Positions 3,887 through 4,747 of a stretch of DNA of 64,000 bases are shown piece after piece. Source of the stretch: Candidatus Binatia bacterium (GTDB lineage: Bacteria > Desulfobacterota > Binatia > HRBIN30); contig BPIR01000001.1 in NCBI GenBank assembly GCA_026004215.1, positions 1,543,860 to 1,607,859 on the forward strand. The letters are read 5' to 3'. Each line of letters begins with the position of its first letter. Within the stretch, counting starts at the first letter, position 1. The notes under the pieces were generated by a model, which was not told where the DNA came from, searched no databases, and was given only the letters and a program-made list of their open reading frames with translations. The position numbers and the translations under genes are program-made.

Positions 3887-4480
3887 ATGAGGAGACGATC
3901 CATCCTTGTACTTACATTTACCTTGCTTTCGGTGCCTGCTTCGCTTGCCCAAACCATCAACGTAACCACTGCAGACGGCGGATCTGTTGTCACCGAACTC
4001 GGCTACGGTACAGGTATAAAGGTCAACAAGAATTCTTCTCTACGACGGTCATTTGTAACCTTCAATGATCCAGCCTGCCCCGTTCAACTAAACTCATCCG
4101 GTGTCACAACCCAGTATGACGGGTTGAATCGGAGCTATTACTACAGGCCGCTTGGAACGCTTACAAGTAATGAACCTGTCTCAGCAATCGATGTGCGATT
4201 TCTGCTTTACGACGTCTTCGGTGACCATATCAGAACTCTCGGTGCGACGTATGTCGGCGACATTGCAACAAACGATGCCTTTCAACTCGGGGATATCGGG
4301 AGTTGGAGAGCTTGGGAAAACGAAGTTCGTGAACTTTACACGATAGTTTCTTTCGTCGCTCGCGTCAGAACACAATCCGGCAAGATTTGGCGTTACAATG
4401 AAAAAGTCATTGGTGAGGAGTTGAACAAAGTTCGGCTCAAGGTAAGCTCTGGCGTTCTCGAACCCAGCAAAGAGAAATAA
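3887..4480 (+). CDS. Low-GC secreted hypothetical protein directly downstream of the Rhs core end (candidate immunity or accessory protein)
   Basis: ATG at 3887 overlaps the +1-frame Rhs stop (ATGA). Signal peptide MRRRSILVLTFTLLSVPASLA-QT. GC content drops sharply against the flanks. No recognisable domain. Confidence 0.5.
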   Translation: MRRRSILVLTFTLLSVPASLAQTINVTTADGGSVVTELGYGTGIKVNKNSSLRRSFVTFNDPACPVQLNSSGVTTQYDGLNRSYYYRPLGTLTSNEPVSAIDVRFLLYDVFGDHIRTLGATYVGDIATNDAFQLGDIGSWRAWENEVRELYTIVSFVARVRTQSGKIWRYNEKVIGEELNKVRLKVSSGVLEPSKEK

Positions 4481-4505
4481 GCAAGCACTTCCGCGGGAGA
4501 ATTTT

Positions 4506-4664
4506 ATGCGCATCTTATTTTTGTTTCCTGTTGCACTTCTTTTCGTCGGTTGCTCAAATGATTGGAGGGCAAAAGTTGAATGTGACACAAGCTGGAGTGG
4601 CGGTTTCAGTGGAAGAACGGTCGATGGTTCTTCATCGGGCTCATTTTTGGAGCATTCGGTTTAA
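4506..4664 (+). CDS. Mini lipoprotein (52 aa), low-GC
   Basis: MRILFLFPVALLFVGCSND has a lipobox (LFVGC). It lies in the same low-GC island and is not in the ORF track (under 60 aa). A short ORF, so weak support. Confidence 0.25.
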   Translation: MRILFLFPVALLFVGCSNDWRAKVECDTSWSGGFSGRTVDGSSSGSFLEHSV

Positions 4665-4747
4665 TTGCAGTGCTCGTAATGGAGAGTCCAACTGAAGACG
4701 ATGTAGACTTAGTCTAGCAACGTTCCGCTCACACTGTCACAAGTCCT

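Follow-up and report, generated by a model that had tools for sequence, protein, structure and literature searches.

A low-GC island joined to the remnant of a teneurin-like protein gene in a Candidatus Binatia genome

In a 64-kb stretch of a Candidatus Binatia metagenome-assembled genome (MAG), hereafter the window, a short AT-rich island follows the remains of an Rhs-type toxin gene and carries one intact gene, which encodes a protein of 197 amino acids (aa) with a putative export signal. A first-pass annotation of the window had proposed that this gene and a small lipoprotein gene behind it form an orphan immunity or cargo module of the Rhs locus. Does the 197-aa protein belong to the toxin system whose remnant it adjoins, or did its gene arrive there by accident? 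Taking the evidence as a whole, we regard as the best explanation that the island is a scrap of foreign DNA joined to a dead gene for a bacterial teneurin-like protein (TLP), and that the 197-aa protein probably has no functional tie to the toxin remnant. The features discussed are listed in Table 1.

A low-GC island at the broken end of a teneurin-like protein gene

The guanine-plus-cytosine (GC) content drops from 0.69-0.73 to 0.45-0.50 between about position 3800 and 4830, and rises again after 4830. Sliding-window analysis gave a GC of 0.472 for the island itself (3840-4806, ~970 bp), as against a mean of 0.621 in the other 967-nt segments of the window (standard deviation 0.025, minimum 0.559). 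With z = -6.0 it is the lowest-GC stretch of the whole 64 kb, so the compositional shift noticed at first reading was real, in a window that is 62% GC overall and not ~67% as then estimated. GC at third codon positions (GC3) is 0.485 in the 197-aa gene and 0.67-0.82 in eight host genes around it. The island holds three genes; the first is intact, and of the second and third only the 5' ends are left. No match came from Rfam and tRNA scans of this part of the window, a promoter and terminator scan gave nothing above shuffled expectation, and the surroundings of the island contain no integrase, att site or tRNA.

The nearest relatives of the island are two contigs with a GC of 0.48, a 1443-nt contig of a Bacteroidia MAG (L008) and an unassigned metagenome contig (L035) that is 82% identical to L008 and carries the same gene pair. 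At the nucleotide level the island is 73-75% identical to these copies. The pair, that is, the 197-aa gene and the lipoprotein gene 25 nt behind it, recurs in the window, L008 and L035 only. The DNA alignment to L008 (73% identity) begins at window position 3840 (ACGTTATGTG) and ends near 4628, covering a 47-nt leader with its AAGGAA conserved, the entire 197-aa gene, the 25-nt spacer and the lipoprotein gene up to about codon 42. Since core-tail homology ends at 3839 and L008 homology starts at 3840, the junction is sharp. By its composition and its relatives the island looks foreign and horizontally acquired, in agreement with the first-pass annotation.

That annotation had also pointed to an ATGA overlap between the Rhs frame and the 197-aa gene. 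The overlap exists, as the core-tail frame stops at TGA 3888-3890 across the ATG at 3887, but it lies wholly within imported DNA. Because L008 has the same CAACAATGA, the overlap is uninformative on coupling to the Rhs frame.

We asked whether such a junction might instead be an artefact of assembly or binning, a low-GC piece of another organism having been mis-joined to the Binatia contig. The sharply different composition and the match to a Bacteroidia MAG contig would fit this, and the flanks consist of repeated TLP fragments, where assemblers fail. Nevertheless, we consider it very improbable. An independent Logan assembly of the same run yielded a contig (L007) that equals window 3790-5897 at 100% identity and spans both island edges, although its own ends, at 3790 and 5897, fall inside such repeats. 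This second assembly reproduces the interval exactly, so the MAG assembler is not alone in producing the junctions, and a chimeric join is less likely. Further, both flanks are TLP sequence of host-like GC, and the island differs by ~25% from the Bacteroidia copies and is therefore not that organism's DNA.

What had been described as an Rhs core upstream of the island turned out to be a core tail of ~65 aa fused to the N-terminal part of a TLP. The open reading frame (ORF) at 1079-3829 encodes 916 aa, and Pfam recognised in it TTR_TEN1-4 (5e-21), CarboxypepD_reg, FN-plug, Dockerin_1 and, weakly, TEN_NHL. In a phmmer search against PDB sequences it resembled the solved bacterial TLPs 9ifo_A and 9pt5_A (E 3e-115; query 162-829 on 365-1044). 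The alignment to 9ifo_A covers residues 365-1044 and then jumps to 2102-2137. Hence the TLP lacks about 1000 residues, namely the remainder of NHL and all of the YD shell, with the break at base 3638; accordingly, neither Pfam nor phmmer detected an intact YD-repeat shell in ORF 1079-3829, upstream of the 197-aa gene.

One or two YD repeats come directly after the break. Past the frameshift, the core-tail frame carries AADYDPTAGRWTAKDPIGFNGYQRNLYAYAYNDPVNT..., and its stretch 3729-3839 matches TIGR03696 (Rhs_assc_core, E 1.2e-9) and aligns to residues 2102-2137 of 9pt5_A (E 3e-8). Homology to 9pt5_A ends at ...NDPVN, the last codon being 3837-3839. The frame reads ...YAYAYNDPVNT-LCVMGAQPPTKGIQQ up to its stop, and the 16 codons beyond the core are all imported leader DNA. 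In the frame translations, neither a DPxG(L) autoproteolysis motif nor an in-frame C-terminal toxin follows the core tail, and no toxin domain was found; the toxin part is thus absent, as first supposed. Instead of toxin-coding sequence continuing in frame from DPxG, the first part of the foreign DNA is a non-coding leader.

The TLP gene is present in a second truncated copy. Window positions 1-244 and 3395-3638 form a 244-nt direct repeat with 99% identity, and the former belong to the upstream copy KatS3mg077_1323 (P0042), a 913-aa protein that is 96% identical to the 916-aa ORF and whose C-terminus is the window ORF 97-426. In each copy the NHL domain breaks off at the identical base and a long frame stays open; either a pseudogene was duplicated recently, or the cell still uses a truncated surface protein. 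The TLP gene can no longer function as a toxin gene. Its YD shell, DPxG site and C-terminal toxin are lost, and what remains is frameshifted and tandemly duplicated.

Table 1. Features of the island and its flanks in window coordinates.
Feature	Coordinates	Strand	Basis
3' end of upstream tandem TLP copy (KatS3mg077_1323)	1..244	+	direct repeat of 3395-3638
N-terminal module of bacterial TLP: dockerin-like, TTR, FN-plug, start of NHL; breaks inside NHL	1079..3638	+	Pfam, phmmer
Last YD repeat(s) and Rhs core tail (~65 aa), 1-nt frameshift near 3730-3740, cut before DPxG	3639..3839	+	frame translations, TIGR03696
47-nt leader of imported cassette, with AAGGAA resembling a ribosome-binding site; left edge of foreign DNA	3840..3886	+	DNA homology to L008
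Intact gene of 197-aa beta-sandwich protein, putative Sec export	3887..4480	+	exact match to KatS3mg077_1327, homologues
Truncated lipoprotein gene (52-aa ORF); codons 1-42 (4506-4631) homologous, remainder diverges to the stop	4506..4664	+	tblastn, family alignment
Start of zinc-ribbon ORF (MTKKCPDCAEEIKFEAKVC...), ending at the first 24-nt repeat; right end of low-GC DNA	4748..4806	+	sequence reading; weak Pfam Zn_ribbon_3, UPF0547
24-nt direct repeat, copy 1 (GATAGGCATTCGAATCACCTTGGA)	4807..4830	+	0/100 shuffles gave any
C-terminal remnant (~75 aa) of IS91-family transposase	5175..5405	-	tblastn against plasmids, E down to 4e-12; plasmid matches carry the label IS91 family transposase
24-nt direct repeat, copy 2	5438..5461	+	two matches in window
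Stray TLP YD-shell fragment, out of order (downstream of the core tail)	5463..5880	+	translation; phmmer

The 197-aa protein and its relatives

We next describe the intact gene of the island. By inspection, its product begins with a putative Sec signal of typical form (MRRRSILVLTFTLLSVPASLA, with Q after the predicted cleavage site; MRRR-SILVLTFTLLSV-PASLA followed by Q). Homologues share this type of N-terminus, and the predicted local distance difference test score (pLDDT) of the structural model is low in the putative signal region. The ratio of nonsynonymous to synonymous substitution rates (dN/dS) between the window gene and that of L008 is 0.09, and the gene is therefore real and under constraint.

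The statement that the protein belongs to no recognisable family held up. The protein and 32 aligned relatives gave no match in Pfam, NCBIfam, PADLOC or PHROGs, and a sequence-profile search of the PDB reached an E of 0.69 at best. Relatives are nonetheless numerous: there are 41 close homologues, and a profile search found 755 clusters at 50% identity, 537 of them at E <= 1e-10. Single-domain proteins of 160-270 aa make up almost all of these clusters; the longer members examined by eye have N-terminal extensions, for example a membrane anchor or a GYF-like domain. MAGs of Bacteroidia, Verrucomicrobiae, Blastocatellia and Pseudomonadales are among the named hosts. The 197-aa protein is a new, unnamed member of this large uncharacterised family.

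In a confident AlphaFold2 model built with 32 homologues (pLDDT 88, predicted template-modelling score 0.81), about nine strands form a beta-sandwich, to which a C-terminal helix is added. Foldseek searches of the PDB and BFVD returned generic immunoglobulin-like (Ig-like) sandwiches only, with template-modelling (TM) scores of at most 0.42, including 5tta, a hypothetical protein of C. difficile, 3o0l of the DUF1425 family (DUF, domain of unknown function), Ig domains of GH2 enzymes and RhoGDI. None of the top 50 PDB matches was described as an immunity protein.

To place the family in its genomic setting, we surveyed 26 other distinct loci with family members and compared the flanking ORFs of 23 loci all-against-all by BLAST. 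An Rhs core motif or YD sequence beside the family was found at none of the 26 (0/26), and a regular expression for the Rhs core motif, NLYxY, run on the first six related loci hit the window only. No neighbour was common to more than two loci in the all-against-all comparison. Pfam and PADLOC searches of the neighbouring proteins were uninformative except for one Peptidase_C92 protein, zinc ribbons and mobile-element genes. The mobile-element surroundings comprise a TrwC relaxase and an integrase (L001), a TrwB coupling protein and a resolvase (L004), and an IS481 transposase (L014). Other settings are clearly chromosomal: judged by eye from ORF translations, one member (L024) sits between the rpsP-rimM-trmD-rplS cluster and a thiolase gene, and three loci (L016, L017, L026) share a low-GC synteny of Bacteroidota-like look. 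Neither tblastn of 50,697 phage records and 72,556 plasmids nor a pattern scan of IMG/VR found the family. Elsewhere the family stands alone, under purifying selection, and in the loci inspected it is never beside Rhs.

In most loci the GC of the gene equals that of the locus (0.36-0.59). From the first five loci the family had seemed to keep a GC of ~0.45-0.5 regardless of host; this was rejected, as further loci track the host GC over the range just given. The first-pass annotation had named clear homologues in non-Rhs contexts, together with native codon usage, as what would speak against its proposal. The homologues exist, whereas the codon usage of the gene is not native in the Binatia genome.

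Two local arrangements were seen along the way. A homologous protein of ~255 aa with an N-terminal membrane helix is encoded 43-50 nt upstream of the family member in L013 (69-851) and L027 (934-1698); it has no Pfam or PADLOC match and is the sole recurrent neighbour seen. In a Pseudomonadales MAG (L010, 9729-9983 and 9980-10567), the family member overlaps by ATGA the stop of an 84-aa ORF without a family match, and this pair is flanked by ordinary metabolic genes.

Could the 197-aa protein still be an orphan immunity protein? It would once have given protection from a C-terminal toxin that acts in the periplasm and belonged to this TLP or to a related TLP or Rhs protein; after the toxin was lost, the gene would have been kept as a defence against neighbours that still deploy it. 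A signal peptide together with a small beta-sandwich is a common make-up of periplasmic immunity proteins, and the foreign composition is what toxin/immunity cassettes usually show. At one locus (L002) the relative is preceded by a 391-aa Peptidase_C92 protein (permuted papain-like amidase), the one hint of a toxin link. The position is suggestive as well: the gene is the first after the TLP core tail, and nearly every bacterial TLP ORF is directly followed by a small, highly diverse immunity gene (PMC13018210; Raoelijaona et al. 2026; structures 9ifo, 9pt5).

Against these points stand the survey, with its 0/26 loci with Rhs or YD sequence, no recurring upstream partner, and several relatives in housekeeping or clade-syntenic settings at native GC. 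The leader at the start of the foreign DNA, where toxin sequence after DPxG would be expected, does not fit either, nor do the Foldseek results or the failure of PADLOC and Pfam to match the family or to say anything informative about its neighbours. Motifs of the family are absent from the supplementary files of PMC13018210, example immunity proteins included, and no relative was seen by eye in part 1 of the two-part immunity FASTA file of that study. The argument for an orphan immunity gene is, in the end, one of position, and we find it unlikely.

The wider proposal of an Rhs immunity or cargo module fares no better, given the same 0/26, the non-coding leader and a lipoprotein gene that is a fragment (see below). 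The same pair was not met after intact Rhs toxins elsewhere: besides the window it occurs only in L008 and L035, where no Rhs was seen, and the short L008 flank left of the shared leader is not Rhs-like.

The family might also be read more generally, as widespread stand-alone periplasmic immunity or envelope-shield factors against toxins (diffusible or contact-delivered) or phage, which move between phyla as single genes, one of them having been captured at the toxin/immunity slot of a dead TLP locus. We hold this to be a doubtful, speculative generalisation.

The truncated lipoprotein gene and the right-hand flank

The second gene of the island had been described as a lipobox mini-ORF of 52 aa. 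It does contain a lipobox, LFVGC (MRILFLFPVALLFVGC by sequence reading), whose Cys is near-invariant in the family alignment, but the ORF represents only the 5' part of a lipoprotein gene that elsewhere codes for ~100 aa. By tblastn it is 70% identical over 44 aa to the 104-aa lipoprotein of L008, and the gene is full length (104 aa) in both L008 and L035. The family (alignment A3, 70 members) has no Pfam entry; its members measure 85-163 aa, mostly 95-108 aa. The full-length mature domain (about 80 aa, with conserved ...CCVVQKQT...YGVVSVC) is missing from the 52-aa ORF, in which homology ends after residue 42-44, and the C-terminal 60 aa of the family, with both near-invariant Cys, are absent. 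The 52-aa ORF is a pseudogene fragment.

Elsewhere, this lipoprotein family keeps company with lysogeny genes. One locus (L029, lipoprotein at 5001-5309) has a CI-type repressor, the lipoprotein, a 119-aa gene and an integrase; another (L030, 53-361) is a shortened form of that stretch, with the lipoprotein, the 119-aa gene and the integrase but without the repressor; and in a third (L031, 5001-5318) an integrase gene immediately follows the lipoprotein gene. IMG/VR viral contigs contain three further relatives (L032-L034). The family looks like a prophage moron, and possibly it is a superinfection-exclusion lipoprotein. Known lipoproteins of this kind are Llp of T5, Cor of phi80/HK022 and Ltp of TP-J34.

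These surroundings raise the possibility that the whole island is a moron left by a prophage or integrative element, in which the 197-aa gene and the lipoprotein gene would form a cargo pair that modifies or shields the envelope, for instance for superinfection exclusion. Conservation of the pair in the window, L008 and L035 is in line with this, as are the repressor and integrase genes and viral contigs just mentioned and the relaxase, integrase, TrwB, resolvase and IS481 genes near some 197-aa relatives. However, the 197-aa family was not found in IMG/VR, the phage records or the plasmids searched, the window, L008 and L035 are the only places where both families are present together, and the vicinity of the island has no integrase, att site or tRNA. 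With its lipoprotein truncated, the pair cannot work as a pair in the Binatia genome. A moron origin of the island therefore seems improbable to us.

To the right of the island, the two 24-nt direct repeats (GATAGGCATTC[G/C]AATCACCTTGGA) bracket 607 nt (4831-5437). They are candidates for element ends, for a duplication or for a recombination site; flanking direct repeats of 24 nt are not a known feature of IS91. The transposase remnant inside the bracketed interval corresponds to about residues 397-472 of a 521-aa transposase, the C-terminal zinc-ribbon region; the catalytic domain is absent, with no Pfam match to Y2_Tnp. We considered capture of the island by this IS91-family element. IS91/ISCR elements mobilise adjacent DNA from the 5' side of the transposase gene, whereas the island lies on its 3' side, and the surviving element is too small for a verdict.

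The stray YD fragment behind the second repeat corresponds to about residues 1730-1839 of 9ifo_A/9pt5_A (phmmer E 4.6e-4). Pfam had no match for it, and only the solved TLP sequence revealed what it is; it could derive from the deleted shell or from a third copy in decay. From ~6250 onward the window is ordinary chromosome, with genes for TauE, PAP2, a MaoC dehydratase, a hydantoinase and others. On the left-hand side, the spacer between the two TLP copies (245-1078) contains on its minus strand, for example at 614-787, frame-broken pieces that resemble the N-terminus of a UvrD-type helicase (...NIIAFTFTDKAATEL; Pfam UvrD-helicase, E 0.03).

Origin of the island and comparison with known systems

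We propose the following course of events for foreign DNA joined to a dead TLP gene. A scrap of ~970 bp would have come from a donor lineage of ~48% GC, whose closest known copies are those in the Bacteroidia MAG contig L008 and in L035. Illegitimate (non-homologous) recombination probably joined it to the broken 3' end of a TLP gene that was already decaying, beside the remnant of the IS91-family element. The 197-aa protein is predicted to be exported by Sec, with its signal peptide cleaved after ASLA, and would act alone in the periplasm or outside the cell, probably as a non-enzymatic beta-sandwich with a binding or shielding role towards some component of the envelope. Its adjacency to the core tail would then have come about because a dead gene, in a locus prone to rearrangement and scarred by insertion sequences, tolerates incoming DNA at no cost, and would not reflect an operon.

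Several observations weigh against this explanation. The 197-aa gene is the first ORF after the TLP ORF, which is the immunity slot of published TLP loci (PMC13018210), and the core breaks within a few codons of the natural core/toxin boundary, the usual site of cassette exchange in polymorphic-toxin loci. Most of the comparison contigs are short. In L008, the flank left of the cassette measures 47 nt, which is not enough to rule out that a toxin gene preceded it in the donor lineage. Finally, the binding or shielding role of the 197-aa protein is a putative one, derived from predicted fold and localisation.

That polymorphic-toxin loci gather foreign DNA and gene debris as they decay is well known. 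The island looks like ordinary scrap of this kind and has no bearing on a long-standing open question. The locus does document how a TLP toxin gene, of a class described only recently, decays in Binatia, through deletion of the shell, tandem duplication, IS91 scarring and entry of foreign DNA at the core/toxin boundary. It also flags a sizeable family of exported beta-sandwich proteins that has a confident predicted fold and no curated family, and that could receive its own entry as a domain of unknown function, and it ties a small lipoprotein family to prophage lysogeny modules.

Compared with known systems, the parts of this locus show partial likenesses. IS91/ISCR rolling-circle elements encode a transposase of ~520 residues, of which ~75 residues are left here, without the catalytic domain. 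Small prophage lipoproteins adjoin repressor and integrase genes, as does the ~100-aa family here, with its CI-like repressor, integrase and viral contigs; the likeness to Llp, Cor and Ltp is one of genomic setting, and the window copy ends after 42 codons. Among Foldseek matches, the 197-aa protein comes closest to DUF1425/YcfL (PDB 3o0l) and the C. difficile protein 5tta, both exported Ig-like proteins, with which it has the general beta-sandwich topology in common. With TM scores of 0.30-0.38, identities of 14-16% and no sequence-profile link, this likeness is at the level of fold class only.

Rhs loci are said to hold orphan toxin/immunity modules and to undergo C-terminal displacement. 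Such modules keep the PxxxxDPxGL end of the core, followed by an alternative toxin in frame and then by an immunity gene. Our locus resembles them in that DNA of foreign composition comes after a short 3' fragment of the core, and in its repeated core pieces. It differs in that the core is cut before DPxG and is directly followed by a non-coding leader, with no toxin sequence.

A further comparison is with TLP effector/immunity pairs. From these the locus departs by the loss of four parts (the remainder of NHL, the whole YD shell, the DPxG site, the C-terminal toxin) and by a gene that is frameshifted and duplicated in truncated form; in addition, the 197-aa family has no TLP link at the other loci inspected, and its motifs do not occur in the published example immunity proteins. 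What the locus shares with TLP pairs is an upstream gene that is a clear homologue, with TTR, FN-plug, the start of NHL and the core tail, and a small gene placed directly after it.

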